Assembly (NCBI GenBank): GCA_013816505.1
Contig: JACDEG010000001.1
Location: 1 to 55,871, forward strand
Source: Pyrinomonadaceae bacterium
Lineage (GTDB): Bacteria; Acidobacteriota; Blastocatellia; Pyrinomonadales; Pyrinomonadaceae
Reading direction: 5' to 3'
DNA: 55,871 nt
Numbering within the stretch: the first letter of the stretch is position 1; the number at the start of each line of letters is the position of its first letter. The translations under genes and the position numbers were made by a program. Positions 7,430-39,429 of the stretch are shown piece by piece. The notes under the pieces were generated by a model. That model saw only the letters and a list, made by a program, of their open reading frames with translations, made no database searches and was not told where the DNA came from.

Positions 7430-7489
7430 GATTTAGGATTTGCCGAATCAAGCCTTGTGAGTGGTGTTTGAAAGTTACGTGAAGGAAGG

Positions 7490-7658
7490 GTTGAGTGTGA
7501 TGCAAGTTAGGATTTAACACAGAGACACAGAGGACACACAGAGGACACAGAGAAATGCGTTGAGAGACGTGTTCTGTCTTCTGTATTCTTTCTTCCGTGT
7601 CCTCTGTGTCTTCAACTCTGTGTCTCTGTGTTAAATCCGTCTGACGCTTCCACTCAAC
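7490..7658. repeat. Long imperfect hairpin element A (arms of ACACAGAG(G) tandem repeats)
   Basis: ggatttaacacagagacacagag (7510-7532) is perfectly complementary to ctctgtgtctctgtgttaaatcc (7616-7638). The arms extend with gacacagaggacac repeats. Outer gttgagtg (7490-7497) pairs with cactcaac (7651-7658). Confidence 0.8.
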
Positions 7659-7705
7659 TGTAGCTTGCTCTACAACCTGACATCAGACGAGTGCCAAAAA
7701 CATCT

Positions 7706-9559
7706 ATGCCGACATCAAAAAGAATTTTCTCCAACCTGCTGCTCGCCATTCTGTGCTTCACTGCCATCGATACGTGGGCGCAGACTTCAGCCGTCCCGCG
7801 CCCCGAATATCCGCGCCCCGATTTCGTCCGCGCCGATTGGCAGACGCTGAACGGCGCGTGGGAGTTTGAGTTTGACGACGCGGATCGCGGTCTCGCCGAA
7901 CGCTGGTACGCGACGAGCGGTCAGCGTTTCGGCAAGACTATTCAGGTGCCATACGCTTTTCAGAGTAAGTTGAGCGGCATCGGCGACACTTCGTTTCATG
8001 ACGTGGTGTGGTATCGGCGGGCAGTGCGAATTCCCGAAAACTTTCGGCGCGATGCGCGGCGCGTGATGCTCAACTTCGGCGCGGTCGATTACGAAGCGAC
8101 GGTGTGGGTCAACGGCGCGCGCGTCGGCGACCATCAGGGCGGTCACGTTGGTTTTGGCCTCGACATCACCGACCTGCTCAAAGCAGGTGATAACCAGATC
8201 GTCGTGCGCGTCTTCGACCCTTCGACGGACCGGACGATTCCGCGCGGCAAGCAGTATTGGAAACCCAATTCGGAGATCATCTGGTATACGCGCACCACCG
8301 GCATCTGGCAGCCCGTGTGGCTCGAAGCGGTCGCGCCCGTTCATGTCGCGCGTCTGCGCATCACGTCCGACATTGATAATTCGCAGGTGCAGATCGAAAC
8401 CATCCTGAACAAGCCCGCGCCGCCGGACACGCGCCTGCGTCTGAGCGCGAGTTTGCGGGGCGAGGTGCAGGCGCGCTCCGAGTTCGCGGCGATTGCGACC
8501 GGCGGCGCGCATCCCGCGACGACGCTGAAACTCGACCGTCAGGAAACGTGGAGTCCGGAACGCCCGACGCTCTACGATCTGGACGTTGAGGTGGTCGGCG
8601 CGAACGGGCAGGTGCTCGATAAAGTCGCAAGCTACTTCGGGCAGCGCAAAGTGAGCGTGCATGACGGGAAAATCTACCTCAACAACTCACCGTATTATTT
8701 GAAGCTGGTTTTGGATCAAGGCTACTGGCCGGAAAGCGTGTTGACGCCGCCGACCGACGAGGCTATTCAGTACGACATCAAGATGACAAAAGCGTTCGGC
8801 TTCAACGGGGCGCGCAAGCACCAAAAGGTCGAAGACCCACGCTGGCTCTACTGGTGCGACAAACTCGGACTCGTGGTGTGGGGCGAAATTGCGAACGCCT
8901 TCGACATTTACACAGACGATTATGTGCGCCGCTTCACGGACGAGTGGCAGCAGGCCGTGCAGCGCGATTACAACCACCCTTCGATCATCGCGTGGACGCC
9001 GATCAACGAGAGTTGGGGTGTCAACCGCATCCTGACCGACGCACAGCAGCAGGCGCACGCTAAGACAATGTACTTTCTGACGCGCTCGCTCGATTCGACG
9101 CGGCTCGTACAGGACAACGACGGCTGGGAGCACACCGATGCAACCGACATCTTCGGCATCCATGACTATGCGCGCACCGGCGAGGAACTAGCGGCGAAGT
9201 ACAAAGTCCTGGAGACCGATCCGACCACCGTTCCGCGCAATGGCCGGGAAGCGCTGGCGCACGGCTATAAGTACAATGGTTCTCCGATTGTGTTGACAGA
9301 GTTCGGTGGCATCGCGTACCGGATGAACGCGCCGAAGGCAGCGAACGAGTTCGGGTACGGGAACACCGAGCCGACCAAAGAAGCTCTGCTTGTGAGACTC
9401 GACGGCCTTGTGAAGGCGTTGCGGTCGAACAAAATGATTGTCGGTTACTGCTACACGCAACTCACTGATGTCGAGCAGGAGATCAACGGGTTGATGACGT
9501 ATGACCGGAAGCCGAAAGCGGACCCGGCGGAGTTCGCGCGAATTTTCAATCAACGTTGA
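7706..9559 (+). CDS. Glycoside hydrolase family 2 enzyme (secreted)
   Basis: A signal peptide follows ATG 7706. VPRPEYPRPDF...WQTLNGAWEFEFDD marks the GH2 N-terminal sugar-binding domain. FGAVDYEATVWVNG is also present. The acid/base region is YNHPSIIAWTPINES and the nucleophile region is IVLTEFGG. Confidence 0.8.
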   Translation: MPTSKRIFSNLLLAILCFTAIDTWAQTSAVPRPEYPRPDFVRADWQTLNGAWEFEFDDADRGLAERWYATSGQRFGKTIQVPYAFQSKLSGIGDTSFHDVVWYRRAVRIPENFRRDARRVMLNFGAVDYEATVWVNGARVGDHQGGHVGFGLDITDLLKAGDNQIVVRVFDPSTDRTIPRGKQYWKPNSEIIWYTRTTGIWQPVWLEAVAPVHVARLRITSDIDNSQVQIETILNKPAPPDTRLRLSASLRGEVQARSEFAAIATGGAHPATTLKLDRQETWSPERPTLYDLDVEVVGANGQVLDKVASYFGQRKVSVHDGKIYLNNSPYYLKLVLDQGYWPESVLTPPTDEAIQYDIKMTKAFGFNGARKHQKVEDPRWLYWCDKLGLVVWGEIANAFDIYTDDYVRRFTDEWQQAVQRDYNHPSIIAWTPINESWGVNRILTDAQQQAHAKTMYFLTRSLDSTRLVQDNDGWEHTDATDIFGIHDYARTGEELAAKYKVLETDPTTVPRNGREALAHGYKYNGSPIVLTEFGGIAYRMNAPKAANEFGYGNTEPTKEALLVRLDGLVKALRSNKMIVGYCYTQLTDVEQEINGLMTYDRKPKADPAEFARIFNQR

Positions 9560-9613
9560 GAACAGTTTTCAGTTTTGAGTTTTCAGTGTTCAGCTCAAAA
9601 CTGAAAACTGTTC
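9560..9613. repeat. Hairpin element B: perfect 20-bp stem built from GTTTTCA/GTTTTGA heptamers
   Basis: gaacagttttcagttttgag (9560-9579) is complementary to ctcaaaactgaaaactgttc (9594-9613), with a 14-nt loop. It begins 1 nt after the GH2 stop (9557-9559). There is no U-tract. Confidence 0.85.
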
Positions 9614-9633
9614 AAAATTCACAGGGCCAGCGA

Positions 9634-9822
9634 ATGACGCAGCACGATACAAAGCAAGCGCACCACGACGGCACCACGATGCACCGCCGCCGCATCACGC
9701 TCAACGACGGGCGGTACATAATCTTCTATACCTTCGACGGGGCAACCGCGCCGCTTAACACAGGAGAGTCGGCACCGCAGCCTGAAGCAAAGCCGGTGGC
9801 CGAAGAGGAGCGTCGTGTCTGA
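9634..9822 (+). CDS. Small ORF matching the N-terminal extension of long-form GalT proteins (separate frame from galT)
   Basis: MHRRRITLNDGRYIIFYTFDG resembles the TRLADGRELIYFD-type N-terminus I recall in actinobacterial GalT. It ends 8 nt inside the galT ORF, in a different frame. Confidence 0.45.
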   Translation: MTQHDTKQAHHDGTTMHRRRITLNDGRYIIFYTFDGATAPLNTGESAPQPEAKPVAEEERRV

Positions 9823-10819
9823 GCTTCGCTGGAATCCACTCTTAGGCGAATGGGTCGCGACCGCGACGCACCGGCAGCAGCGGACGTTTCTGCCGCCCGC
9901 TGACTTTTGCCCGCTGTGCCCGACGAAGCCCGGCGGCTTTCCGACCGAAGTCCCCGAAAGCAGTTACGACATCGTCGTCTTCGAGAACCGCTTTCCATCC
10001 CTGCGCCCGAACCCTGAACCGCCGGCCATCGAAGGCACCGAGTTGTACCCGGTGCGCCCTTCGGCAGGCGTGTGCGAAGTGGTGCTCTATTCGCCGAACC
10101 ATACTTCGACGCTTGCCACCGAACCGGTCGAGCAGATTCATAAACTGGTCCAGGTGTGGACGGATCGCTTCCGCGAATTATCTGAACTGGAGTTCGTTGA
10201 TTACGTCTTCATCTTCGAGAACAAGGGCGAGGCAATCGGCGTGACACTGCACCACCCGCACGGCCAGATTTACGCTTACCCGTTCACGCCGCCGCGCGTC
10301 GCACGTCAAGTCGAACAGTCGCGCGCGCATTATGAAAAGACGAATCGCTATTTACTCTCCGACATCATCAACGAAGAGCGGCGCGACGGTCGGCGGATCA
10401 TCGCGGAGAACAGTTCTTTTGTCACCTACATCCCGTTCTTCGCGCGCTGGCCGTACGAGTTGCACATCGCGCCGCTGCGTCACGTGCAGGCGCTCACTGA
10501 TCTGACGGACGCGGAGCGGAAAGATATGGCTTCGATTTTAAAGGTGGTGCTGGTCGCGTTCGACGGTCTCTTCAATATTTCGCTCCCATACATGATGGTT
10601 TTATATCAGCGACCGAGCGACGGGAAAGATTATGACTACTACGGTTTTCATATCGAGTTCTTTCCGCCGCTCCGGGCTGCGAACCGTTTGAAATACCTTG
10701 CTGGCAGCGAAACCGGAGCGGGGATGTTCATCAACGACACGCTCGCCGAAGAGAAGGCCGCCGAGTTGCGTGCGCTCGTCAAGCCGGTTGCATGGAACAC
10801 AGAGAGGGCAGGCCGTTGA
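9815..10819 (+). CDS. galT: Galactose-1-phosphate uridylyltransferase
   Basis: The zinc motif is CPLCPTKPGG and the His-Pro-His active site is TLHHPHGQIYAYPF. LRWNPLLGEWV is typical of GalT. The gene lies immediately upstream of galK. Confidence 0.85.
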   Translation: MSELRWNPLLGEWVATATHRQQRTFLPPADFCPLCPTKPGGFPTEVPESSYDIVVFENRFPSLRPNPEPPAIEGTELYPVRPSAGVCEVVLYSPNHTSTLATEPVEQIHKLVQVWTDRFRELSELEFVDYVFIFENKGEAIGVTLHHPHGQIYAYPFTPPRVARQVEQSRAHYEKTNRYLLSDIINEERRDGRRIIAENSSFVTYIPFFARWPYELHIAPLRHVQALTDLTDAERKDMASILKVVLVAFDGLFNISLPYMMVLYQRPSDGKDYDYYGFHIEFFPPLRAANRLKYLAGSETGAGMFINDTLAEEKAAELRALVKPVAWNTERAGR

Positions 10820-11979
10820 TTGATCGAGTGAGACTCGCACGCACTTTCTATCAACGTTACGGACGCGAGCCGCGCCTGTTCCGCGCGCCGGGGCGGGTCA
10901 ATCTTATCGGCGAACACACCGACTATAACGACGGCTTTGTGCTGCCGATGGCGATTGACCGCGAAACCGTCATCGCTGGCGCGGCGCGCGACGACCGACG
11001 GGTGCGCGTCTATTCGTTGAACGCGGATGAAGCTGTGGAATTCGATCTTGACCATCCCGGCGAAAAGCAGCGCGGCATCTGGCTCGATTATGTCGAGGGC
11101 GTCGCGCAGAGCTTGCTGGGGCGCGGCGTCCGTTTGAAGGGCGCTGACCTCGCCGTGCTGTCGGACGTGCCGGTCGGCGCGGGACTGTCATCTTCGGCGG
11201 CGCTTGAAGTATCGGCGGGGTTGGCGTTCGTGTCGCTCTCGGATCAGCAACTGGATCGCGTGACGCTGGCGCTCGCCGGGCAGCAGGCCGAGCACGTTTA
11301 CGTCGGGACGATGTGCGGGATCATGGATCAGTTCGTCGCCGCGCTCGGGCGTGAGGGACACGCGCTGTTGATCGACTGCCGCTCGCTTGAAGCGACGCTC
11401 GTCCCGCTCGACACATCGGAGACGGCCATCGTTGTCTGCGACACCAACGTGAAACACGAGCTTTCGTCCTCCGAGTACAACGCGCGGCGCGCCGAGTGTG
11501 AACGCGGTGTCGAGATGCTCCGCGAAATGATGCCAGGAATACGCGCGCTGCGCGACGTGAGTGTGGCCGAGTTCGCACAACACGAAGAGCGTCTGCCCGA
11601 AACCATCCGGCGGCGCTGCCGTCACGTCGTGACAGAGAACGAGCGAACGCTCTCCGCCGCCCGCGCGTTGCAGGACGGCGACTTGAAAGAGATGGGGCGC
11701 TTGATGTACGCCTCGCATCGTTCGCTGCGCGACGACTACGAAGTGAGTTGCCGCGAGCTTGATGTGCTGGTGGAAATTGCCGAGAGTCTCGGCGGCGTGG
11801 TCGGCGCGCGAATGACCGGCGGCGGCTTCGGCGGCTGCACCGTCAACCTCGTGCGGCGTGAGGCACTTGGAGAGTTCGAGCAGGTAGTATCGCGAGAGTA
11901 CACGCGGGCGACCCATCTCAACCCGACCATCTACGTCTCCGAAGCAGGAGGCGGAGCAAAGGAGATAAAGGACTCTTAA
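10792..11979 (+). CDS. galK: Galactokinase
   Basis: The galactokinase signature GRVNLIGEHTDYNDGFVLPMAI is present. The GHMP loop is PVGAGLSSSAALEV, and MTGGGFGGC is also present. The start is uncertain: ATG 10792, or in-frame TTG 10816 overlapping the galT stop as TTGA. Confidence 0.9.
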   Translation: MEHREGRPLIDRVRLARTFYQRYGREPRLFRAPGRVNLIGEHTDYNDGFVLPMAIDRETVIAGAARDDRRVRVYSLNADEAVEFDLDHPGEKQRGIWLDYVEGVAQSLLGRGVRLKGADLAVLSDVPVGAGLSSSAALEVSAGLAFVSLSDQQLDRVTLALAGQQAEHVYVGTMCGIMDQFVAALGREGHALLIDCRSLEATLVPLDTSETAIVVCDTNVKHELSSSEYNARRAECERGVEMLREMMPGIRALRDVSVAEFAQHEERLPETIRRRCRHVVTENERTLSAARALQDGDLKEMGRLMYASHRSLRDDYEVSCRELDVLVEIAESLGGVVGARMTGGGFGGCTVNLVRREALGEFEQVVSREYTRATHLNPTIYVSEAGGGAKEIKDS

Positions 11980-12058
11980 GGGATGAGGGATGAAGGATGA
12001 GGGATGAATTAAAGCATGTGCGTTGCTTGTCATCAGTCATCACCGATCACTCATCATC
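11980..12058. repeat. Hairpin element C: arms of GGGATGA/AGGATGA heptamers (imperfect)
   Basis: gggatgagggatgaaggatgagggatgaa (11980-12008) faces tcatcagtcatcaccgatcactcatcatc (12030-12058). About 19 of 26 positions are complementary. It starts 1 nt after the galK stop. Confidence 0.6.
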
Positions 12059-12067
12059 ATTGTTTTT

Positions 12068-13162
12068 ATGAGAATCAAAGATGTGGCGCGTGAGGCGGGG
12101 GTTTCGACGGCGACCGTTTCACACGTCATCAACAAGACGAGGTTTGTTAGCGAGGAGATACGCGAGCGTGTGCTGCGTGCCGTCGAGCGCTGCAACTATT
12201 ACCCGAATGCGCACGCGCGGAGCCTCGCGTCGGGGCGCAGCCAAATCCTCGGTTTGTTAATCTCTGACATCTCGAACCCATTCTTCCCGGAACTGGTGAA
12301 GAGCATCGAAACGGCGGCCTCCGAGAGCGGCTACGAAGTCTTACTCTCCAACACGAACTACGACGTTGACCGCACGTCGAGCTTTGTGCGGCGCATGATC
12401 GAGCGCAAGGTGGCGGGCGTCGCGCTGATGACATCGGAATTAAACGTCGCGTTGATTGACGAACTCGCACGCCGCCACGTCTCGGTCGTCTTTCTCGACC
12501 TCGGCGCGCCGGGCGTGCGGATGAGCAACATCGCGGTCAACTACGAAGTCGGGATCGAAGAAGCAATGCGCCACTTGGTCGCGCTCGGCCATCAGAAAAT
12601 CGCATACATCGGCGGGCCGGAACATTTACGTTCGGCGGCGAAGCGGCGCGAAGCATTCGGCGACTACGTCTCAAAGCATCTGCGCGACGCACCACCGCCG
12701 TCGGTTTACGTCGGTGACTTTAAGCTCGACGGTGGGCGGCGGGCGGCGTGGGAGATGCTTGCGGTCGGAGAGATGCCGACGGCTATCGTCGCCGCGAACG
12801 ACATGATGTCGCTCGGCGCGATGCGCGAGTTGCGCGCCGCCGGGGTCAGCATCCCACGCGATGTGTCCATCATCGGCTTCGACGACATTGCGTTCGCGGC
12901 GCTGGCCGAGCCGCCGCTGACGACCATCTGTCTGCCGCGCGTCGAACTCGGACGCCGCGCCGTCGAAGCGCTGCTCGCGACCATCGAGCACCCGGAACAG
13001 GAAGGCGTCGAGATTCGACTCCCGACCTACCTTGTGATTCGCAACTCGACGGGGCCTGCGCGAACGGCTCCGACGAAAAAGGCTGTGCATCACAAAGTAA
13101 AAACAGAGGGTAAAGAAAGCGCGCGGCGCCCGCCGTCTTCAAGGACGAAGAAGCTAAATTGA
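12068..13162 (+). CDS. LacI-family transcriptional regulator
   Basis: The N-terminal HTH is MRIKDVAREAGVSTATVSHVINKTRFVSEEIRERV. A periplasmic-binding-protein-like sugar domain follows (ILGLLISDISNPFF, VAANDMMSLGAMREL, SIIGFDD). Confidence 0.9.
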   Translation: MRIKDVAREAGVSTATVSHVINKTRFVSEEIRERVLRAVERCNYYPNAHARSLASGRSQILGLLISDISNPFFPELVKSIETAASESGYEVLLSNTNYDVDRTSSFVRRMIERKVAGVALMTSELNVALIDELARRHVSVVFLDLGAPGVRMSNIAVNYEVGIEEAMRHLVALGHQKIAYIGGPEHLRSAAKRREAFGDYVSKHLRDAPPPSVYVGDFKLDGGRRAAWEMLAVGEMPTAIVAANDMMSLGAMRELRAAGVSIPRDVSIIGFDDIAFAALAEPPLTTICLPRVELGRRAVEALLATIEHPEQEGVEIRLPTYLVIRNSTGPARTAPTKKAVHHKVKTEGKESARRPPSSRTKKLN

Positions 13163-13240
13163 ACCGCACAACAATCGAAGGTCGAGCAGTGGCTTGTGTG
13201 CCAATCCTAATTCAGAACAATAGACGCTGAAACAATCCGC

Positions 13241-14842
13241 ATGAAAATCATCTCTACGTTATTTCGGGCATACGCCGCCGCGTTGTTGTTATTCACGGTT
13301 GGAGCTGTGGGTGCTTCGGCGCAACAGAGACCCGCATACACCAACCCGGCGGCGGCGGGCGATTACCCGGACCCGTCAGTGATTCGCGTCGGGCGGGATT
13401 ATTGGGCGACAGCGACTTCGTCGGAGTGGGCGCCGGAGTTTCCGATACTGCACTCGCGCGATTTGGTTAATTGGAACATTGTCGGCGCGGTCTTTCAAAA
13501 ACGTCCGGCGTGGTCGGTGGGAAATTACTGGGCGCCGGAGATTGCGCAGGATCGAGGGCGCTACTTCGTCTACTACACCGCGCGCAGGAAGGACGGGCCG
13601 CTGTGCGTCGCGGTCGCCACCGCCGGCAAACCATCGGGGCCGTACACGGATCGCGGCCCGCTCGTGTGCCAGGAGGTCGGCTCGATAGACGCTTTCCCGA
13701 TCAGGGATGAAACAGGACGACCATTCCTGGTGTGGAAGGAAGACGGCAACAGCGTGAAGAAGCCGACGCCGCTATGGGCGCAGAGACTCTCGCCGGACGG
13801 CACCAAGTTGATCGGCGAGCGGCAGGAGATTCTGCGCAACGACGCGCCGTGGGAAGCGCAGTTGATCGAAGGGCCGTACATCATGCGGCGCGACGGCTGG
13901 TTCTACATGTTCTATTCGGGCAACGCCTGCTGTGGTCGTGAATGCAACTACGCGCTTGGCGTCGCGCGCGCGCGCAAGCTGTTGGGGCCGTGGGAGAAGA
14001 ATCCGGCGAATCCCATTTTAAAAGGTAACGACGAGTGGAAATGTCCCGGTCACGGCAGCATCGTGCGAGACACGCGCGGGCGCGACTTTCTGATGTACCA
14101 CGCTTATCACCCGAAAGATTTTGTGTACGTCGGGCGTCAGGCGGTACTCGATCAAGTCGCCTGGGGTGCGGATGGGTGGCCGACTGTTAACGACGGCAAG
14201 GGGCCGAGCGGTCGGGCACTCGCGCCGCTCGGAGTCGCGGAGCGTAACGAGGAATATCAGTTCTTTGACGACTTCAACTCGCCGCGACTGGCGCCCGGCT
14301 GGCAGTGGCCGCAATCGAACGAACCGGTGTGGCGTGTCGAGACGGCTGGGCAAGGATGGCTCACGCTGACGCCGTCGAGCGGGCAGGGCGGCAATGTGGT
14401 CGGCGCCGTCGCCGCACACTTTACGACCGTGGGCGATTATGTCGCGACGACGGTTGTCGAGACGCGCGCGTTGAAACCGGGTGCGCTCGCCGGGCTGTCG
14501 GCATTTGGTGACAATGACAACGCGCTCGGCGTCGGCGTCGGGAGGGATGGCAGAGCTGTGCTGTGGCGACGAGAAAAGAACGAGCACCGCACAATGGCGA
14601 CGGTGGACGCGCCGAACACATCTTCGATCCATCTGCGGATGACGGCGCGTGGCGGCCACCGCTTTCAATTCGCGTTGAGCGGTGACGGCAAGACCTGGAC
14701 GGATGTGGGCGACGAATTGCGGGGCGAGTATCTGCCGCCGTGGGACAGGGGCGTCCGCGTCGCACTGACGACGGGCGGCACCGAGGGCGCGACGGGCCGG
14801 TTCGCGTCGCTGCGCATCGAACCCGCCAGCGATAATCAATAA
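13241..14842 (+). CDS. GH43 beta-xylosidase/alpha-L-arabinofuranosidase with C-terminal beta-sandwich domain
   Basis: A signal peptide is present. Motifs include GDYPDPSVIRVGRDYWATATS, NYWAPEIAQDRGRYFVYYTA and IEGPYIMRRDGWFYMFYSGNACCG. The C-terminal ~200 aa is LamG-like. It is a paralog of 18789..20426. Confidence 0.85.
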   Translation: MKIISTLFRAYAAALLLFTVGAVGASAQQRPAYTNPAAAGDYPDPSVIRVGRDYWATATSSEWAPEFPILHSRDLVNWNIVGAVFQKRPAWSVGNYWAPEIAQDRGRYFVYYTARRKDGPLCVAVATAGKPSGPYTDRGPLVCQEVGSIDAFPIRDETGRPFLVWKEDGNSVKKPTPLWAQRLSPDGTKLIGERQEILRNDAPWEAQLIEGPYIMRRDGWFYMFYSGNACCGRECNYALGVARARKLLGPWEKNPANPILKGNDEWKCPGHGSIVRDTRGRDFLMYHAYHPKDFVYVGRQAVLDQVAWGADGWPTVNDGKGPSGRALAPLGVAERNEEYQFFDDFNSPRLAPGWQWPQSNEPVWRVETAGQGWLTLTPSSGQGGNVVGAVAAHFTTVGDYVATTVVETRALKPGALAGLSAFGDNDNALGVGVGRDGRAVLWRREKNEHRTMATVDAPNTSSIHLRMTARGGHRFQFALSGDGKTWTDVGDELRGEYLPPWDRGVRVALTTGGTEGATGRFASLRIEPASDNQ

Positions 14843-14872
14843 TCTTGATTTTGAATCAGTGGAGAAACCGGA

Positions 14873-15904
14873 ATGATGAAATCATCGAATCATACTCGCC
14901 GACTCTCGACAATCGTCGGCATCCTCTTCGCCCTTGCGTCGCTGACGATGACGAGTTGTGTTAAGCAGGAAGGCGGCGGCGTCAGTGGAGTCAGCGGCGC
15001 GGGCGCGTCCGAAGTCGCGGGAATCAAGAAGGAAGGGAAGCTGGTGATCGGATTTGCGCAGATGGAGAACAACAATCCGTGGCGCATCGCCGAAACCAAC
15101 AGCTTCAGGGAAGAGGCGGCGAAGCGCGGACATGAGATCGTCGTCTCTGACGCGCAGGGTGACGCGGCCCGCCAAGTTAACAACGTCGAGGATTTGGTGA
15201 CGCGCCGGGTCGACGTCATTATGCTGCCGCCGCGCGAGTTCGAAGGTCTGTCGCCGGCTCTGAAGGCCGCGCGCGAGGCGAAGATTCCCGTCTTCCTGAT
15301 TGACCGCGAGGCCGCCGGCACGTCCGGTGAAGATTACGTCGCATTCATCGGCTCGAACTTTGTGCAGCAGGGTCAGCGCGCCGGCGAGTGGTTGATTAAT
15401 AAGACCGGCGGCAAGGCGAACATCGTCGAATTGCAGGGCACCTCCGGCGCTTCGGTGACGCGCGACCGCAAGCAGGGTTTCGCCGACGCGATCAGCAAAA
15501 GCCCTGACATGAAGATCATCGCTTCGCAGACCGCGAACTTCTCGCGCGCCGAAGGCCAGAAGGTGATGGAGACGATCATTCAGGCGCGCGGCAAAGAGAT
15601 CACCGCCGTCTACGCGCACAACGACGAGATGGCGATTGGCGCGATCCAAGCGTTAAAGGCCGCCGGGATGAAGCCGGGCACGGACGTGTTGGTGGTTTCG
15701 GTGGACGGCGAGAAGGATGCGCTGAAGGCGATTACCGCGGGTGAGATGAACGTGACCGTCGAGTCGAATCCGCGCCTCGGCCCGCTTGCCTTCGACACGC
15801 TGGAACGCTTCCGTCGCGGCGAAAAGATCGAACCTCGGATCATCATCCAGGATCGTTTGTTTGATTCGAGCAACGCCGCGCAGTTCGTCGATGAAGCGTA
15901 CTAA
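14873..15904 (+). CDS. ytfQ: Furanose-type sugar ABC transporter periplasmic binding lipoprotein (YtfQ-like)
   Basis: There is a lipoprotein-like LTMTSC signal. Long collinear similarity to E. coli YtfQ as I remember it includes VELQGTSGASVTRDRKQGFADAI, VYAHNDEMAIGAIQALKAAGMKPGTDVL and KIPVFLIDRE. Confidence 0.8.
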   Translation: MMKSSNHTRRLSTIVGILFALASLTMTSCVKQEGGGVSGVSGAGASEVAGIKKEGKLVIGFAQMENNNPWRIAETNSFREEAAKRGHEIVVSDAQGDAARQVNNVEDLVTRRVDVIMLPPREFEGLSPALKAAREAKIPVFLIDREAAGTSGEDYVAFIGSNFVQQGQRAGEWLINKTGGKANIVELQGTSGASVTRDRKQGFADAISKSPDMKIIASQTANFSRAEGQKVMETIIQARGKEITAVYAHNDEMAIGAIQALKAAGMKPGTDVLVVSVDGEKDALKAITAGEMNVTVESNPRLGPLAFDTLERFRRGEKIEPRIIIQDRLFDSSNAAQFVDEAY

Positions 15905-15907
15905 GAG

Positions 15908-15981
15908 AGGGGCCAGGGGTCAGGGGTCAGGGGCCGGTAAAAGCTGATCGTCTGACCCCCGGCTCCCGACCCCCGGCCCCT
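15908..15981. repeat. Hairpin element D: arms of AGGGGCC/AGGGGTC heptamers
   Basis: aggggccaggggtcaggggtcaggggccgg (15908-15937) faces ctgacccccggctcccgacccccggcccct (15952-15981). About 23 of 30 positions are complementary, and the mismatches are transitions. It starts 4 nt after the ytfQ stop. Confidence 0.75.
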
Positions 15982-15987
15982 AATTTT

Positions 15988-17550
15988 ATGATGACAAACG
16001 TTCCGCTGCTCCGCATGGAGGGCATCACGAAAATCTTCGGCGGGTATAAAGCGCTCGACGGCGTGGCCCTGACGCTTGAGCGTGGCGAGGTGCATGCGCT
16101 GGTTGGCGAGAACGGCGCGGGCAAGTCGACGCTGATCAAGATCATGACGGGCGCGTACGGGCGTGACGGCGGGCAGATGTGGCTGGATGGTCAGTCCGTC
16201 AATTTTCGCACGCCGGAAGACGCGCAGGGCGCGGGCGTGGTCGCCGTCTATCAGGAGGTGAATCTGCTCGCGTACCGCACGGTGGCCGAGAACATCTATC
16301 TCGGTCGCGAGCCGCGGCGCTTCGGCTTCGTCAACTGGAAAAAGATGAACGCCGACGCGCGCGAGATTCTCGAAAGACTCGGTTTGAACATCGATCCGCG
16401 CGCGACTCTGGGTAGTCTGAATATCGCGCTCAGGCAGATGGTCGCAATTGCGCGCGGCGTTTCGTTCAATGCGAAAGTCGTGGTGCTCGACGAGCCGACC
16501 AGTTCGCTGACGGAGCATGAAGTCTCGATCCTCTATGACGTGGTGCGAAGGTTGAAGGCGGAGGGCGTCGGCGTCGTCTACATCAGCCACCGTTTCGATG
16601 AGTTGTACACGGTCTGTGACCGCGTGACGGTATTGCGCGACGGACGGTTCGTCGCGACGCGCTCGCTCGCGGGGCTGGAGAAGATCGACCTGGTGTGCAT
16701 GATGCTCGGCAAGCGTCGCGAAGAGTTGCGGCAGGGCACGACCGCTTTCAGACACATCGAGCGGCGGGGTGATGAAGCGCCGTTGCTGCGCGCCGAAAAC
16801 CTGACGCGCGGGCGCAAGCTGAACGATGTGACAATCGAGGCCGCGCGCGGCGAGATCGTCGGGATGGCGGGCTTGCTCGGTTCCGGGCGGACGGAGACGG
16901 CGCGGGCGATTTTCGGTGCTGACCGCATTGAGCGGGGCGAGGTTTATCTCGAAGGCAAGCGTTTGAATCTGCGCACGCCCGGCGACGCGATTGACGCCGG
17001 ACTCGCCTTTCTCTCCGAAGACCGCAAGGCCGAGGGCATCATTCCGGAACTATCGGTGCGCGAGAATCTGACACTCGCCGCGCTACCCGCGCTCAGCAAA
17101 ATGGGGATTGTCAACAATGCACGTCAACGCGAGATCGTGGAAAAGTTTATGAAGCGGCTCGGCATCAAGGCGACGAGCGCTGACCAGAAGATTCGCGAGC
17201 TATCCGGCGGCAATCAACAGAAGGTGCTGCTCGCGCGATGGTTATGTAAGAATCCGAAGTTTTTAATTCTCGACGAACCGACGCGCGGCATCGACATCGG
17301 CGCGAAGGGTGAAATTCAGGCGCTCGTCGGCGAACTCGCCGAAGCTGGCCTCGGCGTGTTGATGATCTCGTCCGAGTTAGAGGAGTTGGTCGAAGGCAGT
17401 TCGCGCGTGCTGGTGATGCGTGACGGCGAGTGCGTCGCGGAGTTGCGCGGCAATCAGATTTCGCAGGACTCGATTATTCACGCGATGGCCGAGGGCAGCG
17501 CCGTCCAAGCTGACCAACATGTGGCGGACGACGTAAGTAAACAGTTTTGA
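15988..17550 (+). CDS. ytfR: Sugar ABC transporter ATP-binding protein, duplicated ATPase cassette (YtfR-like)
   Basis: Walker A is GENGAGKST. Signature motifs include LSGGNQQKVLLARWL, and Walker B is ILDEPTRGID. Two cassettes fit in 520 aa. Its position between ytfQ and ytfT homologs supports the call. Confidence 0.85.
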   Translation: MMTNVPLLRMEGITKIFGGYKALDGVALTLERGEVHALVGENGAGKSTLIKIMTGAYGRDGGQMWLDGQSVNFRTPEDAQGAGVVAVYQEVNLLAYRTVAENIYLGREPRRFGFVNWKKMNADAREILERLGLNIDPRATLGSLNIALRQMVAIARGVSFNAKVVVLDEPTSSLTEHEVSILYDVVRRLKAEGVGVVYISHRFDELYTVCDRVTVLRDGRFVATRSLAGLEKIDLVCMMLGKRREELRQGTTAFRHIERRGDEAPLLRAENLTRGRKLNDVTIEAARGEIVGMAGLLGSGRTETARAIFGADRIERGEVYLEGKRLNLRTPGDAIDAGLAFLSEDRKAEGIIPELSVRENLTLAALPALSKMGIVNNARQREIVEKFMKRLGIKATSADQKIRELSGGNQQKVLLARWLCKNPKFLILDEPTRGIDIGAKGEIQALVGELAEAGLGVLMISSELEELVEGSSRVLVMRDGECVAELRGNQISQDSIIHAMAEGSAVQADQHVADDVSKQF

Positions 17551-17725
17551 GTTTTGAGTTTTGAGTTTTCAGCCTGATGTCGGGATACATTTTGTCCCGG
17601 AGGGACATGTGACAATAGCGAGAGCGATTAATCACTGGGCTATTATCATTCAGTCCCTGCGGAACAATTTGAAAACTATCCAAACATCAGGCTCTCAGCT
17701 GAAAACTCAAAACTGAAAACTGTTT
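17539..17725. repeat. Hairpin element E: 187-nt nested rod, outer arms of AGTTTTG heptamers, distinct palindromic core
   Basis: aaacagttttgagttttgagttttgagttttcagcctgatgt (17539-17580) faces acatcaggctctcagctgaaaactcaaaactgaaaactgttt (17684-17725). The inner tgtcccggagggac...gacaatagc faces ggctattatc...gtccctgcggaaca. The ytfR stop (17548-17550) lies inside the left arm. Confidence 0.85.
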
Positions 17726-17743
17726 GATGGGGCGTGATGAACG

Positions 17744-18730
17744 ATGCAGCAGGCCACAGGAATTAACAGTACAGCGGCGGCGCGTGGCGGCGTGATGTCG
17801 AGCCTCGCGGCTTACGGGCCAACGTATGGCGCGCTGGCCGCGCTGGTGCTGCTGATCGTCTTTAACGCGATTTTCACACGCAACTTCGCGACGCCCGACA
17901 ATTTGTGGAATACGCTCCTGCAGATGACGCCGACGGCGCTGGTTGCCACCGGGATGACGCTGGTGATTGCGACCGGCGGCATTGATCTATCGGTCGGTTC
18001 GGTGATGGCGATTGCCTCGGCGCTCGCGGCCACGTTGATCGCGGGAGGGACGGGTGTCGGCGTCGCCGCGCTGCTCGCGCTCGCCGTGGCGTGCGGCTGC
18101 GGGGCGTTGAACGGCGCGCTCATCTCCGGCTTCCGCATTCAGCCGATCATCGTCACGCTCGCGCTGTTGATCGCGGGGCGCGGCGCGGCGCAGGTCATCA
18201 GCCAGGGCGGGCAGTTGATTCCGCTCAACAATCCGGCGTTCGGCTATCTGGGTCGGGGCTACGTCGGACCGGTGCCGGCGCAGGTGCTGATTATGATAGT
18301 GGTGGCGGTCGTCGCTGTGTTCGTGATGCGGCGGTCGAGTTTCGGGCGGTACGTCGTCGCGGTCGGCGGGAATGAAGCGGCGGCGCGTCTCGCCGGAATC
18401 AAGACGCATCGCACGAAGATTACGGTCTATGCCATCAGTGGGTTACTCGCCGGCATCGCGGGCTTGATCGAGACGGCGCGACTCGGCGCCAGCGACGCCG
18501 CGAAGGTCGGGCTGAACATCGAGCTTGACGCCATCGCGGCGGTCGTCGTTGGCGGCACTCCGTTGACCGGCGGGCGGGCGACCGTCGGCGGTACGATCAT
18601 CGGCGCGCTCATCATGCAGATCATTTCGATGACATTCATCATGAACGACATCAAATTCTCGTGGTCGCTAGTGCTCAAGGCGGCGATCATTCTCATCGCT
18701 GTTTATGTCCAGCGTCCGAAGGTCGCTTGA
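17744..18730 (+). CDS. ytfT: Sugar ABC transporter permease (YtfT-like)
   Basis: It is a multi-TM protein. GMTLVIATGGIDLSVGSVMAIAS and LDAIAAVVVGGTPLTGGRATVGGTIIGALI align with the remembered YtfT sequence. Confidence 0.8.
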   Translation: MQQATGINSTAAARGGVMSSLAAYGPTYGALAALVLLIVFNAIFTRNFATPDNLWNTLLQMTPTALVATGMTLVIATGGIDLSVGSVMAIASALAATLIAGGTGVGVAALLALAVACGCGALNGALISGFRIQPIIVTLALLIAGRGAAQVISQGGQLIPLNNPAFGYLGRGYVGPVPAQVLIMIVVAVVAVFVMRRSSFGRYVVAVGGNEAAARLAGIKTHRTKITVYAISGLLAGIAGLIETARLGASDAAKVGLNIELDAIAAVVVGGTPLTGGRATVGGTIIGALIMQIISMTFIMNDIKFSWSLVLKAAIILIAVYVQRPKVA

Positions 18731-18788
18731 CGCTCAGACCACGTCCGAATTACGTGCGGTAAGTTTACAGTCGGTTTCATATTCGATA

Positions 18789-20426
18789 ATGGGTCGATCA
18801 CTTCGCGTTAGCTGTTTCGTTGTTCTGCTCAGTCTCAGTCTGCTTGCGTCCGGCGCCGCACAGACCACAGCGACATTCATTAACCCTGTCATCCCCGGCG
18901 ATTATCCAGACCCATCGGTGATTCGCGTCGGGCGTGACTATTGGGCGACGGCGACTTCAGGTGACTGGGCACCACATTTCCCCATTCTGCATTCGCGCGA
19001 TTTGGTTAACTGGCGAACAATCGGCGCGGTCTTTACGAAGTCGCCCGCGTGGGCCGCACGAAATTTCTGGGCGCCCGAAATCATCAAAGACAGAGGACGG
19101 TTTTTTGTTTACTACACGGCGCGAAAAAAAGGCGGGCCGCTGTGCGTCGCGGTCGCCACCGCCAGTAAACCAACGGGGCCGTACACGGACCACGGCCCGC
19201 TCGTGTGTCAGGAGGCTGGCTCGATAGACGCCTTCATGGTGAGGGACGAACATGGCCGCCCGTATTTAATCTGGAAAGAGGATGGCAACAGCCGCAACCA
19301 GCCGACGCCGCTCTGGGCGCAACGCCTCTCAGAGAGTGGGACGAACTTGATCGGCGAACCAACAGTGATTCTGCGTAACGACGCGCCGTGGGAGAGACAC
19401 GTCGTCGAAGGCTCGTTCATCATCAGACGCGGCGGCTGGTTCTATCACTTCTATTCGGGCAACGCTTGTTGTGGTCGCGAGTGCCGGTATGCGTCGGGTG
19501 TGGCCCGCGCGAGAAAACTTTTGGGGCCGTGGGAAAAGAACCCGGCGAACCCGATTCTCGCCGCCAACGAGCAGTGGCAGTGTCCGGGGCACGGCAGCAT
19601 CGTCACCGACCACCGCGGGCGAGACTTCCTTCTGTACCACTCGTATCGTCAACGCCGCGATACGTTCAATGTCGGACGCGAAGCGTTGCTCGACGAAATC
19701 AGGTGGAACGCGGACGGTTGGCCGAGCATCAACGGTGGTGAGGGGCCGAGCCGAATCGCAGACGCGCCTGCATCGCTCGGTGAGCGTCACCTGAACGCGC
19801 AAATTTTTGACGACTTCGATGGACCTCGACTGGATTTATCCTGGCAATGGCCGCTTGCCAACAAACAGTCCGCGCGCATCGAGACAGCGCGGCGGGGCAA
19901 TCGGCTCAGGCTCGCGCCCGTCGTCGACGTCGCTGGTGACGACTTCACGGACGCAGTTCTCGGACGGCGGACGACTTCCGGCGATTACACCGCGACGACG
20001 TTGATTGACACTCACGGAATGAAACCGGGGGCGCGCGCCGGTCTGTGTGCTTACAGTTGGCGCGGCAGCGCGGTCGGGGCGGCCATTGGTGGCGGGAAGA
20101 TTGACGTGTGGCGGCGCAGGAACGGGAAGGAAGAGAGACTCGCGGCGGTGGATGCTCCTGATGTCAGACACGTCAATTTGCGGATGACGGCGAGCGACGG
20201 CAAGTCGTTCCGCTTCGCCTTTAGCACCGACGGGCGTGAGTGGAAAGAGTTAAGCGAGCCGGTCGCGGGCGGCCACGTCGAAGGCGCGCGCATTGCGTTG
20301 ACGGCGGGCGGAAATCGGGGCGCGGCGGCAAACTTTGAGTGGATCCGAATCATGCCGGCGGTGCGTCCGGGTGCGGGGGATGGATTCACCGCGGAGAACG
20401 CAGAGGGCGCAGAGAAATACAAGTAG
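18789..20426 (+). CDS. GH43 paralog inserted between the two permease genes
   Basis: A signal peptide follows ATG 18789. GDYPDPSVIRVGRDYWATATSGDWAPHFPILHSRDLVNW is near-identical to 13241..14842, with identical nucleotide runs such as gggccgctgtgcgtcgcggtcgccaccgcc. The last 13 codons and the stop lie in hairpin element F. Confidence 0.85.
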   Translation: MGRSLRVSCFVVLLSLSLLASGAAQTTATFINPVIPGDYPDPSVIRVGRDYWATATSGDWAPHFPILHSRDLVNWRTIGAVFTKSPAWAARNFWAPEIIKDRGRFFVYYTARKKGGPLCVAVATASKPTGPYTDHGPLVCQEAGSIDAFMVRDEHGRPYLIWKEDGNSRNQPTPLWAQRLSESGTNLIGEPTVILRNDAPWERHVVEGSFIIRRGGWFYHFYSGNACCGRECRYASGVARARKLLGPWEKNPANPILAANEQWQCPGHGSIVTDHRGRDFLLYHSYRQRRDTFNVGREALLDEIRWNADGWPSINGGEGPSRIADAPASLGERHLNAQIFDDFDGPRLDLSWQWPLANKQSARIETARRGNRLRLAPVVDVAGDDFTDAVLGRRTTSGDYTATTLIDTHGMKPGARAGLCAYSWRGSAVGAAIGGGKIDVWRRRNGKEERLAAVDAPDVRHVNLRMTASDGKSFRFAFSTDGREWKELSEPVAGGHVEGARIALTAGGNRGAAANFEWIRIMPAVRPGAGDGFTAENAEGAEKYK

Positions 20427-20606
20427 GAAGGCAAAAGTAAAAAGGGAACAGGCAAAAGTGAAAGCCACCGAGGAACAGATGTGAGATGTTAGATGCTGGA
20501 TGTTAGTCAAGATGCGCAGGTGTTCTGTCCAACATCTGACATCCGACATCTGACATCAGCAATTGTTTTCCTCTCTCTCCGCGTTCTCCGCGTCCTCTCG
20601 CGGTGA
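20386..20606. repeat. Composite hairpin element F (outer GAGAACGCA-type arms, inner GATGTTA-type heptamer arms, internal direct repeats)
   Basis: Outer tcaccgcggagaacgcagagggcgcagagaaa (20386-20417) faces ctctctctccgcgttctccgcgtcctctcgcggtga (20571-20606). Inner gatgtgagatgttagatgctggatgttag (20478-20506) faces ccaacatctgacatccgacatctgacatc (20529-20557). ggcaaaagt(a/g)aaa occurs as a direct repeat twice. Confidence 0.7.
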
Positions 20607-20630
20607 AATGATTTTTCGGGAGATTGAAGT

Positions 20631-21656
20631 ATGAGCCAGGTCGGGACGACGATTGAGCACGGTTCTACGCGCGGCACCGTCGCGCGCGCGAAGTTCGCTT
20701 CATTCATCCAGCGGCAGGGCGCACTGATCGCATTGCTGCTGGTGTGCGTCGTCGCCGCGTTGCGCTACGAAAGATTTCTGACGGACGCGAATTTGACGAA
20801 CATCCTGCGGCAGAACAGTTGGCCGGGTCTCGTCGCGCTCGGCATGACGTTTGTGATCTTAACCGGCGGCATTGATCTGTCGGTCGGGTCGCTGCTCGCT
20901 GTCGCGGGCGTCGTCGCCGCATATCTTTCGGGGCAGGGCTTAATCGTCGCATTGCTCGCGGGCGTCGGGGTGGCAACCGTGCTCGGTCTCATCAACGGCG
21001 TGGTGATCGCGAAGGCCCGCATCCAGCCGTTCATCGTCACACTGGCGATGATGATTGCGGCGCGCGGGTTGGCGCTCGTCGTCACGAGCGAAGACTCGGT
21101 GCCGGTCAGCCGTCAGGCCACAGACTTCGCGTGGCTCGGGCAGGGCAGTCTCGCGACCCTGTACATCCCCGGCATCAATTTCGACTTTCCGCTGTACATC
21201 CCGGTGTTGATCTTAATCGCGGCCTTCGTCGTCGGGTGGGTCGGGCTGAATCACACGCGCTTCGGGCGGCACGTCTTCGCGCTCGGCGACAACGAAGAGG
21301 CGGCGCGATTGATGGGGCTGAACGTCAATCGCACGACCATCGGCGTCTACACGTTGAGCGGGGCGATGGCGGGTTTGGCGGGCGTGATTCTCGCTTCAAG
21401 ACAGGGGACGGGGCAGCCGACGGCGGGGGTCGGCGCGGAACTCGACGCGATTGCGGCGGTGGTCGTCGGCGGCACGCTGTTGACCGGCGGGCAGGGTGGC
21501 GTCGGTTCGACATTGGTCGGCGTGCTGCTGCTCGGCGTGATTTATAATCTGTTCAACCTCGAAGGCACGATCAGCTCGTGGTGGCAGTGGGTCTTGCGCG
21601 GCGTGTTTCTGCTCGCGGTGGTAATCGTGCAGAACCGTCTGAGCGCGCGCAAGTGA
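20631..21656 (+). CDS. yjfF: Sugar ABC transporter permease (YjfF-like)
   Basis: GMTFVILTGGIDLSVGSLLAVAG, GVGAELDAIAAVVVGGTLLTGGQGGVGSTLVG and EGTISSWWQWV align with the remembered YjfF segments GMTFVILSGGIDLSVGS and DGTLSSWWTKI. Confidence 0.8.
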   Translation: MSQVGTTIEHGSTRGTVARAKFASFIQRQGALIALLLVCVVAALRYERFLTDANLTNILRQNSWPGLVALGMTFVILTGGIDLSVGSLLAVAGVVAAYLSGQGLIVALLAGVGVATVLGLINGVVIAKARIQPFIVTLAMMIAARGLALVVTSEDSVPVSRQATDFAWLGQGSLATLYIPGINFDFPLYIPVLILIAAFVVGWVGLNHTRFGRHVFALGDNEEAARLMGLNVNRTTIGVYTLSGAMAGLAGVILASRQGTGQPTAGVGAELDAIAAVVVGGTLLTGGQGGVGSTLVGVLLLGVIYNLFNLEGTISSWWQWVLRGVFLLAVVIVQNRLSARK

Positions 21657-21696
21657 ATTCGTTGACGTACTCTTCTCAGTATGACGTTCAGGAACA

Positions 21697-24310: not shown

Positions 24311-24395
24311 TACTGAAAGACTCTGAAAAGTATCTTGACGCAAGGAGGGTTGGTGTTATCAGCACGCGACATGAGTGATGCGGAACGGAGAAGGT

Positions 24396-35623: not shown

Positions 35624-35701
35624 TGGGGCGATAGGAGGGTCTTGAACCCTCGACCTCCGGTGCCACAGACCGGCGCTCTAACCAACTGAGCTACTATCGC
35701 C
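35624..35701 (-). tRNA. tRNA-His (anticodon GTG) with encoded G-1 and CCA
   Basis: The hand-folded reverse complement reads G-GCGATAG TA GCTC AGTTGGTTA GAGC G CCGGT CTGTGGC ACCGG AGGTC GAGGG TTCAAGA CCCTC CTATCGC C CCA. The extra 5' G opposite C73 is diagnostic for tRNA-His. Confidence 0.9.

Positions 35702-39355: not shown

Positions 39356-39429
<74 letters not shown>

Follow-up and report, generated by a model that had tools for sequence, protein, structure and literature searches.

Intergenic repeats with a 7-nt unit have been noted since 1990 in cyanobacteria, as short tandemly repeated repetitive (STRR) sequences, and later in Xanthomonas, and there is no consensus on their origin or function. 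The STRR units described by Mazel et al. in 1990 are reportedly CCCCAGT, TTGGTCA, and CAACAGT. In Escherichia coli, malE-malF is the precedent for regulation within an operon by hairpins of the repetitive extragenic palindrome (REP) type. The GGGAATC repeats of Xanthomonas form 186 arrays with 70–75 inverted pairs, are 89–93% intergenic, and lie mostly between co-directional genes, at a mean of 28 nt from the upstream open reading frame (ORF) vs 160 nt from the downstream one (Rehm et al. 2015, PMC4692102). In cyanobacteria, hairpins of 7-bp STRR units lie between hupS and hupL, and transcript stability or translational coupling has been proposed for them (PMC2670836). Stem-loops downstream of binding-protein genes have been shown by experiment to set the stoichiometry of importers belonging to the ATP-binding cassette (ABC) type in Clostridia (PMC9045158). 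Here, we describe six hairpins with short-tandem-repeat arms, named A to F, in a sugar locus of a Pyrinomonadaceae bacterium (Acidobacteriota); the sequence analyzed (the window) is a stretch of 55,871 nt of contig JACDEG010000001.1, assembly GCA_013816505.1, read on the forward strand.

We interpret the six hairpins as members of a class of palindromic short-tandem-repeat elements that extends throughout the lineage of Pyrinomonadaceae, a group of soil Acidobacteria; we hold this reading, together with the explanation developed below, as probable and with moderate confidence. The elements are dispersed in families that share a unit, turn over fast, and are located almost only between a stop codon and the next gene. 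Element D, between the binding-protein and ATPase genes of an ABC transporter operon, differs in kind and, to judge from its conservation, most likely persists under selection as a stem-loop of the mRNA.

Tandem-repeat hairpins in the sugar locus and beyond

The region was read directly and analyzed by inverted-repeat search and Tandem Repeats Finder. All six inverted repeats proposed in a first-pass annotation of the window were found at the coordinates given there, and all six are hairpins with tandem-repeat arms. When RNA folds of each element were compared with 200 dinucleotide shuffles, A, B, D, E, and F gave z scores of −4.3 to −12.6, and C only −1.95. Stems comprise 20–70 pairs and loops 10–80 nt. 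The arm units are 7 nt long, but 8–9 nt in A and in the outer arms of F; Tandem Repeats Finder reported a period of 7 at B, C, D, E, and the inner hairpin of F, a period of 9–11 at A and F-outer, and nothing comparable in the remaining 43 kb. A single detector run at periods 5–12 found 11 arrays of period 7 in the window and 0–1 for periods 8–12. Among window gaps of ≥30 nt, the only ones to reach z ≤ −3.5 were those of A, B, D, E, and F and an ordinary GC hairpin at 1060–1110.

This architecture is abundant in related genomes. Arrays with a 7-nt unit occur at 19.7 per 100 kb in the window and 19.8 in Pyrinomonadaceae loci vs 1.5 in 329 kb from other phyla, so that the period-7 density of the window is ~13 times that of the latter. 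Paired inverted arrays number 6 in the window, 12 in the Pyrinomonadaceae loci, and 0 in the 329 kb from other phyla, with none in the loci of Gemmatimonadaceae or of twenty other taxa. In the orthologous operons from eight further Pyrinomonadaceae, most intercistronic gaps longer than ~80 nt hold a repeat-armed hairpin; the units differ and include GAGTCTG, GTCCAAA, GTTGTCC, GTTCAAA, GATTTTG, and GGTAAGT.

The first-pass annotation had argued from the differing arms that the hairpins are not one family of miniature inverted-repeat transposable elements (MITEs). The arms do differ, but each element belongs to a dispersed family of its own, and B, E-outer, and the E of L001, a relative at 93% nucleotide identity, form one such family (B and E match at 26/26). 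The unit families CAGTTTT, AAAAGGC, GATGTCA, GGGGTCA, and others were found again at unrelated loci and contigs. The A family has a copy at a non-orthologous site in L012 and arm matches in L096, L126, L131, L154, and L046, and the A-type elements of the window, L012, and L003 have TTAAC...GTTAA ends in common. Counterparts of the middle array of F are present in L097, L112 (two sites), L095, L004, and L154, and those in L097, L112, and L154 form hairpins; both arms of F-inner match L150, with further matches in L058 and L047; and copies of the F-outer family with TCACCGC...GCGGTGA ends are present in L156. No second copy of E-inner was found in the sequence examined, and the 8-nt unit of A was not found as an array in metagenome contigs.

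A metagenome scan with the CAGTTTT array CAGTTTTSAGTTTTSAGTTTT matched at least 120 stretches. A complementary array lies within 300 nt at 30 of the first 80 of these loci, vs 2/80 for a complement-only control. In the same contigs there are a further 113 arrays of a 7-nt unit, of which 32 have a partner, and eleven further Pyrinomonadaceae unit families were found as arrays in metagenome contigs (0 in the loci of other phyla).

Placement relative to stop codons was as tight as the first-pass annotation had described it. The hairpin base lies 0, 2, and 3 nt past the stop codon for B, C, and D and 59 nt past it for A, and in E (−13) and F (−42) the left arm contains the stop codon. Taking "near a stop" to mean that a frame of ≥150 aa closes within −15 to +20 nt of the hairpin base, 31/49 hairpins (63%) are near a stop vs 5% of random positions. 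The placement also held beyond the locus: regardless of unit, 15 of 18 hairpin-type heptamer pairs in Pyrinomonadaceae and 40 of 86 in metagenome contigs lie near a stop, as do 22–24% of lone arrays, vs ~5% at random. Most hairpins end close to the next start as well, essentially filling the spacer. The genes that precede CAGTTTT hairpins are of unrelated housekeeping types (PheS, SecD, NuoH, ThiE, MreD, and kinases), and the feature is therefore not tied to sugar loci. Within the sugar locus, a hairpin is present in six of the seven gaps of ≥60 nt, short of the earlier claim that every larger gap holds one; the exception is the 78-nt gap from LacI to GH43 (13163–13240), which is unstructured (z +0.6).

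Authenticity and turnover were examined in close relatives. Five independent assemblies (L029–L033, from ENA, JGI, and NCBI), each partial for the locus, have an identical ATPase and are 99.5–99.8% identical to the window. L029 spans C–F, and L032 and L033 span D–F; all three carry the elements without indels. In L030 and L031, E and F are unchanged and D is a divergent allele with indels, showing 17 differences in 74 nt vs 0.2% elsewhere. Because all five assemblies carry C–F or a subset of them, an assembly artifact, which the first-pass annotation had raised as a refutation, is ruled out. Exact-protein look-ups for GH2 and GalT gave no matches. Contigs of the near-identical strains start within elements (L029 1–47 in an A-family arm, L030 and L031 1–90 in D), from which it follows that the repeats break short-read assemblies.

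At the window's B site, L029, 99.5% identical, has the right arm of an A-family element in exactly that position. L001 lacks E-inner (~124 nt), leaving a plain 52-nt CAGTTTT hairpin like B, and lacks ~220 nt of F, of which the right-arm remnant TTCTCCGCGTCCTCTGCGGTGAAATGA is kept and read as the end of the second GH43 gene (GH43b). Its C and D differ from those of the window in unit number and sequence. Between its GH43 and binding-protein genes lies an additional CAGCAGT-armed element of 144 nt, for which the window presents the empty site; this element has GTAAGC...GCTTAC ends and is flanked on both sides by the 7-bp AATAATC. For F, we favor deletion in L001 as a simpler reading than insertion, because L001 keeps the right-arm remnant and because an incoming left arm would need to match sequence already downstream; the TCAGC repeats around E-inner are compatible with either. 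Most elements are unstable, those other than D being gained, lost, nested, or swapped among genomes 93–99.5% identical, and the modes of turnover across the class comprise gain, loss, nesting, copy-number change, and allele replacement.

In L005, the loop of a GATTTTG-armed hairpin between the ATPase and permease genes (11516–12141) contains two ORFs, a BrnT toxin gene (Pfam, 9.9e-25) and its partner; the related L006 has the GATTTTG hairpin with a gene-free loop of ~100 nt (3355–3540). Hairpin apexes seem to accept insertions, as with E-inner and the BrnT pair of L005.

The hairpin after the binding-protein gene

Comparing the same gaps in relatives, as the first-pass annotation had advised, gave a divided answer: E-inner and F are missing from L001 and B is replaced in L029, whereas a repeat-armed hairpin is found at the D junction in 14 of 16 Pyrinomonadaceae/Blastocatellia loci. 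Among the first nine loci, a hairpin occupies the D site in 8/9, vs 13/41 other gaps (Fisher p = 0.002). A further seven loci (L154–L160) were sampled by binding-protein homology, independent of repeats, and there D is clear in 5/7 (a sixth is decayed) vs 7/115 other gaps (Fisher p = 7e-5). In these distant genomes D is nearly the sole such hairpin in 21 kb, and it ranks 1–3 among the inverted repeats in five of the seven. L154–L157 have a spacer of 95–121 nt in which the repeat-armed hairpin begins 3–6 nt after the binding-protein stop codon, with units CAGAGGT in L154, CAGGAGT/CAGAATT in L155, CAGGGGA/CAGGTGC in L156, and CAGGGGT in L157. At the D site of L160, the arms are GGGGTCA and the loop starts as it does in the window.

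Across genomes the D units form a graded series, CAGGGGT / CAGAGGT / CAGGAGT / CTGGAGT, which points to an element inherited in place and changing in concert, and not to one replaced time and again. The two arms co-vary: the duplex of an element's own arms has −1.21 kcal/mol/nt vs −0.65 for cross-genome arms, and 0/5000 permutations reach the observed value. An alignment of seven D spacers yields 20 consensus pairs, 7 of them with compensatory changes, and a common loop start, GGTAAAAG. Having been kept at one junction across deep divergence with pair-preserving change, D is likely a selected stem-loop.

The distance between stop and start is 1–19 nt in the hairpin-free relatives L010 and L159; in hairpin-bearing loci, the residual left by the hairpin (stop to base plus base to start) is 4–14 nt. 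The ATPase start, with the consensus YTTATG, has no Shine-Dalgarno motif outside the hairpin stem. D probably tunes expression within the transporter operon, as far as sequence comparison can indicate, and it may do so in either or both of two ways. It could protect the binding-protein cistron from 3′ decay or act as a leaky internal terminator, with the result that binding protein would exceed transporter. Alternatively or in addition, the base of the helix could hold the stop codon and the next AUG together, and the ATPase, which has no Shine-Dalgarno sequence, would be translated by coupling.

As the first-pass annotation had it, three of the elements (D, E, and F) lie inside the ytfQ-like ABC operon. 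It had further likened them to the REP and bacterial interspersed mosaic element (BIME) hairpins of E. coli; comparison supports such a role for D only: A, B, C, E, and F are gained, lost, nested, or swapped, and CAGTTTT hairpins stand after housekeeping genes.

Anatomy of the elements and content of the locus

By Pfam, the gene order of the locus is GH127, GH2, a 62-aa ORF, GalT, GalK, LacI, GH43, a YtfQ-like binding protein, ABC ATPase, permease, GH43, permease, GH2, and PhyH. The closest genomic relatives are Pyrinomonadaceae/Acidobacteriota metagenome-assembled genomes, with ATPase identity of 98% for L001 and 74–83% for the others. The binding protein's homologues are annotated as galactofuranose/ribose transport substrate-binding protein and, where named, come from Pyrinomonadaceae or Blastocatellia. 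Coordinates and folds are collected in Table 1.

Table 1. Hairpin elements of the window, their parts, and the two genes that flank D; folds are RNA predictions in kcal/mol with z against shuffles
Feature	Coordinates	Strand	Description	Fold
A	7489–7659	+	171-nt palindrome between GH127 and GH2; arms are 8–9-nt repeats of ACACAGAG(G)	−94.4 (7480–7665), z −10.5
B	9560–9613	+	Plain (CAGTTTT/GAGTTTT)n hairpin; begins right at the end of the GH2 stop codon	−30.9, z −7.1
C	11980–12058	+	Between GalK and LacI; (GGGATGA/AGGATGA)n left arm, decayed right arm	−27.2, z −1.95
YtfQ-like sugar-binding-protein gene	14873–15904	+	Pfam Peripla_BP_4, 7e-56; stop codon adjoins D	
D	15908–15981	+	(AGGGGTC/AGGGGCC)n hairpin filling the spacer from binding-protein to ATPase gene; 3 nt past the stop, 6 nt before the ATG	−52.0, z −4.3
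ABC ATPase gene	15988–17550	+	Pfam ABC_tran, 6e-53; start 6 nt past D	
E outer left arm	17538–17573	+	(AGTTTTG)4; includes the ATPase stop codon 17548–17550	
E inner	17574–17697	+	Palindromic insert of ~124 nt, nested in the CAGTTTT hairpin at its apex	
E outer right arm	17698–17726	+	(AAAACTS)3	
F outer left arm	20385–20416	+	GAGAACGCA/GAGGGCGCA nonamers, end TTCACCGC	
F middle	20425–20465	+	AAAAGGC/AAAAGTA heptamer array, unpaired	
F inner	20476–20560	+	(GATGTGA/GATGTTA/GATGCTG)n hairpin	−37.1, z −3.8
F outer right arm	20566–20607	+	From the inverted-repeat search	

The 23-nt arms of A are perfectly complementary and end in ATTTAAC...GTTAAAT. These ends, and the BrnT pair in the hairpin loop of L005, prompted us to consider integron attC sites, which were dropped: there is no integrase, the genes form an operon that is conserved, and core sites are missing from the other elements. 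B has a perfect 20-nt arm pair. C is a weak hairpin (10/200 shuffles fold equally well), and its orthologue in L001, with GGATGAA/TTCATCC arms and −44.9 kcal/mol, is a far better one. E-inner ends in AGCCTGATGT...ACATCAGGCT, a 10-nt inverted pair, with TCAGC direct repeats on both sides, and the whole of E folds with −93.1 kcal/mol (z −12.6). For the whole of F, the values are −94.7 kcal/mol and z −7.8.

Two elements encode the ends of adjacent proteins. The final four codons of the ATPase gene (17539–17550) lie inside the left arm of E, and the left outer arm of F codes the C-terminal tail of GH43b (stop codon 20424–20426); the last 4 residues of the ATPase and the last 21 of GH43b (20361–20426) are arm-encoded and non-conserved. 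In all relatives GH43b homology stops near residue 552 of 573, and the tail beyond the conserved part is element-derived.

The elements do not resemble intrinsic terminators, which have a short GC-rich stem, a loop of 3–8 nt, and a U tract right behind it. A scan of 7000–22000 for intrinsic terminators called 0/6 of them. The first-pass annotation had noted the absence of a U tract, although short T runs (T4–T5) do follow C, D, and F. Rfam 15 gave no match at gathering score in the hairpin region; at E ≤ 1, the only matches were sub-threshold ones to generic microRNA-precursor hairpin models. Folds with DNA parameters are weaker for D and F-inner and identify no strand. That the 7-nt units might serve to put stop codons in all three frames was considered and rejected: it is true for C, E, and F-inner and fails for A, D, and L012. 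A TCAG/CCAG/TGAG core stands at one phase (NNNTCAG) in many unrelated units, namely those of D, F-inner, B, E, L001 5034–5178, L036, L092, and L094.

Several other features of the window were recorded. The 62-aa ORF (9634–9822, plus strand) has no Pfam match and overlaps the GalT start by 8 nt. ORFs of 51–70 aa occupy its position in L029, L155, L156, L157, and L160, and L012 has a similar sequence; it probably encodes a small protein conserved in the Leloir cluster. The second GH2 gene (21697–23459) is missing in the 93% identical L001, where PhyH directly follows the permease gene. A cyclic di-GMP (c-di-GMP)-I riboswitch aptamer (Rfam RF01051) at 43822–43916 on the plus strand scores 45.5 bits vs a gathering score of 35 and is located ~340 nt upstream of the ORF at 44253–45311. 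The convergent gap at 31845–31962 holds four copies of AGGACTTAC(G) in alternating orientation, a repeat type other than the heptamer hairpins. A CopG-antitoxin-like ORF at 24375–24665 (plus strand) is under the Pfam cut-off, and an ORF at 38741–39049 (minus strand) is a putative HU-like DNA-binding protein, judged from its translation; the two lie in stretches of lower G+C, 24–26 kb and 38–40 kb (0.51–0.54 vs ~0.60). Genes for tRNA-His, tRNA-Arg, and tRNA-Pro are located at 35624–35937 and 39356–39429.

Origin of the class and comparison with described systems

The placement of hairpins beside stop codons would be mainly a survivorship effect. Ancestral spacers would have been 1–30 nt long, and inserted DNA can persist only where it damages neither coding sequence nor the region in which ribosomes bind the next gene. 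An almost perfect palindrome would fold out of the mRNA and leave stop and start 4–14 nt apart in space, with operon expression preserved, so that most copies would be tolerated. A, B, C, E, and F may then be tolerated selfish or mutational DNA with mild effects at most. We infer that arms grow and are homogenized by replication slippage of 7-nt units combined with hairpin-templated correction between arms, and families would also spread between sites.

Several points weigh against this account. At the D junction, L158 has a decayed hairpin and L010 and L159 have none (the L159 spacer is 19 nt), and our statements on the function of D derive from comparative sequence. D could recur in part because its junction is a hot spot for insertion or because the palindrome perpetuates itself, and not through selection, and co-variation of the arms would also be expected from hairpin-templated correction at the DNA level. 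The difference between sense and antisense RNA is not significant (sense is stabler in 14/20 elements, p = 0.12), and D folds slightly better as antisense; there is thus no strand-specific RNA signal. The argument from wobble pairing in the first-pass annotation gains no support from this result or from the small number of G-U pairs, 0–9 per hairpin. A repeat resembling a target duplication was found in one element only, that of L001, and no transposase is linked to the class. Finally, the Pyrinomonadaceae sequence covered is ~0.3 Mb, much of it around one operon, and the metagenome contigs carry no assigned taxonomy, which makes the true breadth of the class uncertain.

The elements might instead be ordinary MITEs, moved in trans by transposases, with terminal inverted repeats and with tandem units that serve as subterminal transposase-binding sites. 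The 144-nt element of L001, with its inverted ends, 7-bp flanks, and empty site in the window, fits this description, as do the 10-nt inverted ends of E-inner with TCAGC on either side and the common ends of A-type elements in the window, L012, and L003; the families are also multi-copy and break assemblies. However, at least a dozen different units would require as many transposases, and there is no transposase gene in the window or near the elements. Flanks resembling a target duplication are present for the L001 element and possibly E-inner, and none were seen for B, C, D, or the metagenome CAGTTTT hairpins, most of which are flanked by palindromic, not directly repeated, sequence; direct repeats around a palindrome are, moreover, also left by slippage-mediated deletion. 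D, for its part, evolves in place with a conserved loop. We regard a MITE origin as unlikely.

It is doubtful, too, that each of the six hairpins is under selection in its own right as an RNA regulator of the sugar locus, a stabilizer or attenuator like REP/BIME that would set differential mRNA stability along the operon. All six do lie in co-directional gaps of one carbohydrate locus, and elsewhere in the window only a single gap, of ordinary type, is strongly structured (Fisher p = 0.0045). The gap between ATPase and permease genes has a repeat-armed hairpin in 5–6 of the first 9 loci, and the Clostridia supply a precedent (PMC9045158). Against this stand the loss of E-inner and F in a relative 93% identical, the swap of B for another family at 99.5% identity, and the decay of C (z −1.95). 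Five of the seven distant genomes have an E-site spacer of 3–13 nt, D alone recurs, and CAGTTTT hairpins follow PheS, SecD, NuoH, ThiE, MreD, and other genes besides.

The elements could also be of the REP/REPIN type, mobilized by a transposase like RayT (IS200/IS605 Y1) that recognizes single-stranded DNA hairpins. As with REPs, these are extragenic hairpins after stop codons without target duplications. RayT-like genes of Acidobacteria have been reported to be flanked by inverted repeats with a common GGGGWSAS (PMC3733652), and the D unit GGGGTCAG conforms to this motif. We searched all ORFs collected with E. coli RayT, which returned a single Y1_Tnp fragment, on the CAGTTTT-bearing contig L118 (Pfam, 5e-07), and then examined a full-length homologue with its flanks, thereby covering one RayT family; no Y1 transposase was found in the window. 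The homologue, P0128 (L162–L164), is flanked by five GTAG-headed double palindromes and not by heptamer arrays, and for that family a link between RayT and the hairpins is unsupported. A–F have neither a GTAG nor a CGTC head and do not look like the genuine GTAG REPs found in this environment, and many unrelated unit sequences coexist. Mobilization of this kind is, in our estimate, very unlikely.

The P0128 flanks were also of note in themselves. At L162 7660–7980 and 8625–8825, and likewise in L163 and L164, five 77-nt units, each made of two palindromes of which one is GTAG-headed, form a textbook REPtron. A GTGAGTC heptamer array lies next to the RayT-like gene of L162, at 7610–7637. Most of the RayT homologues found lie on contigs of < 3 kb.

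Least credible of all is a purely in-place origin without mobility, in which 7-nt slippage and template switching copy one arm onto the other: it would suit the strong preference for period 7, Mrazek's polymerase-footprint idea (quoted in PMC4692102), the differences in unit number and sequence between orthologous C and D, and the graded units and co-varying arms of D, but independent origin explains poorly why arms and ends that are almost identical turn up at unrelated loci and in different genomes (B/E at 26/26, and the copies of A, F-middle, F-inner, and F-outer).

A broader proposal can be made, though we think it improbable. One sequence-independent process would make and maintain tandem-heptamer palindromes in at least three groups (Acidobacteriota, Cyanobacteria, and Xanthomonas), and these would repeatedly be recruited as "fold-out" intercistronic devices. 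Candidate processes would be slippage in 7-nt steps with hairpin-templated copying at the ends of translated regions, or a structure-specific mobilizing enzyme. The base of the helix would keep a stop codon and the following start codon together. A ribosome terminating at the stop codon would open the base of the helix and hand over to a downstream gene lacking a Shine-Dalgarno sequence, the stem would protect the upstream cistron, and D would be a conserved device for coupling and stability.

The locus adds to the record of intergenic heptamers in that the architecture is abundant in a third, unrelated phylum, many unit families are shared among genomes, change occurs on the time scale of strains, and at least one copy has stayed at one operon junction with pair-preserving change. 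D offers a concrete and testable example of domestication, a single hairpin that can be deleted or swapped. On the practical side, metagenome assemblies break at these elements, and neighboring proteins have their C-terminal tails rewritten by them.

The described systems can now be set beside the locus. Like REP, BIME, and REPIN sequences, the elements are extragenic, multi-copy palindromes after stop codons without target duplications, and REP/BIME can stabilize the upstream cistron of a binding-protein-first operon, as in E. coli malE-malF. Unlike them, A–F have no GTAG/CGTC head, the conserved tetranucleotide that REPs carry at one end of a 20–40-nt palindrome (PMC3733652), share no single sequence, and have tandem-repeat arms. 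The TAACTGA repeats of Beggiatoaceae (PMC4679880) are likewise intergenic heptamer arrays, non-random with respect to genes and shared over distant taxa; there, however, direct arrays end just upstream of start codons, with one inverted case among 170 sets.

For D, the nearest parallel is with the stem-loops of Ruminiclostridium (PMC9045158) and with selective RNA processing and stabilization (PMC4423207). D, too, is a stable, conserved stem-loop that immediately follows the binding-protein gene of an ABC importer operon and precedes the genes for the translocator. The Ruminiclostridium stem-loops are stable, with a U tract that is weak or lacking, and the expectation is that they raise binding protein over transporter. 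Unlike D, they are not built of tandem repeats and do not belong to dispersed families, and their function comes from experiment, that of D from comparison.

The first-pass annotation knew of no description of such hairpins as a class, but those of Xanthomonas (PMC4692102) and the hupS–hupL STRR hairpins of cyanobacteria (PMC2670836) precede ours; a literature search found no description of heptamer hairpins in Acidobacteria. Its comparison with cyanobacterial STRR sequences was apt. The elements have in common with the STRR of heterocystous cyanobacteria intergenic 7-nt units, several families per genome, and inverted arrays that give hairpins inside operons. The phylum and the unit sequences differ, and on strict criteria the elements would not be called STRR; in Pyrinomonadaceae, hairpin pairs dominate, are nested, lie within a few bases of stop codons, and have one site conserved across genomes. 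With Xanthomonas, they share heptamer arrays, convergent pairs able to form stem-loops, a position nearer the upstream ORF and mostly between co-directional genes, and variability between close species. Xanthomonas has a single G-rich unit family, interpreted as G-quadruplex-forming, whereas Pyrinomonadaceae have many unrelated units, most of them unable to form such structures, with tighter placement (0–20 nt from the stop codon), nesting, and presence or absence at the level of strains. With 7-nt tandem arms in close inverted pairs, intergenic and near the upstream ORF, the hairpins described here are the same kind of sequence as STRR hairpins and the inverted GGGAATC arrays of Xanthomonas; relative to both, the novelty lies in the phylum, in the coexistence of many unit families, in nesting, in dynamics at the level of strains, and in the conservation of the D site.

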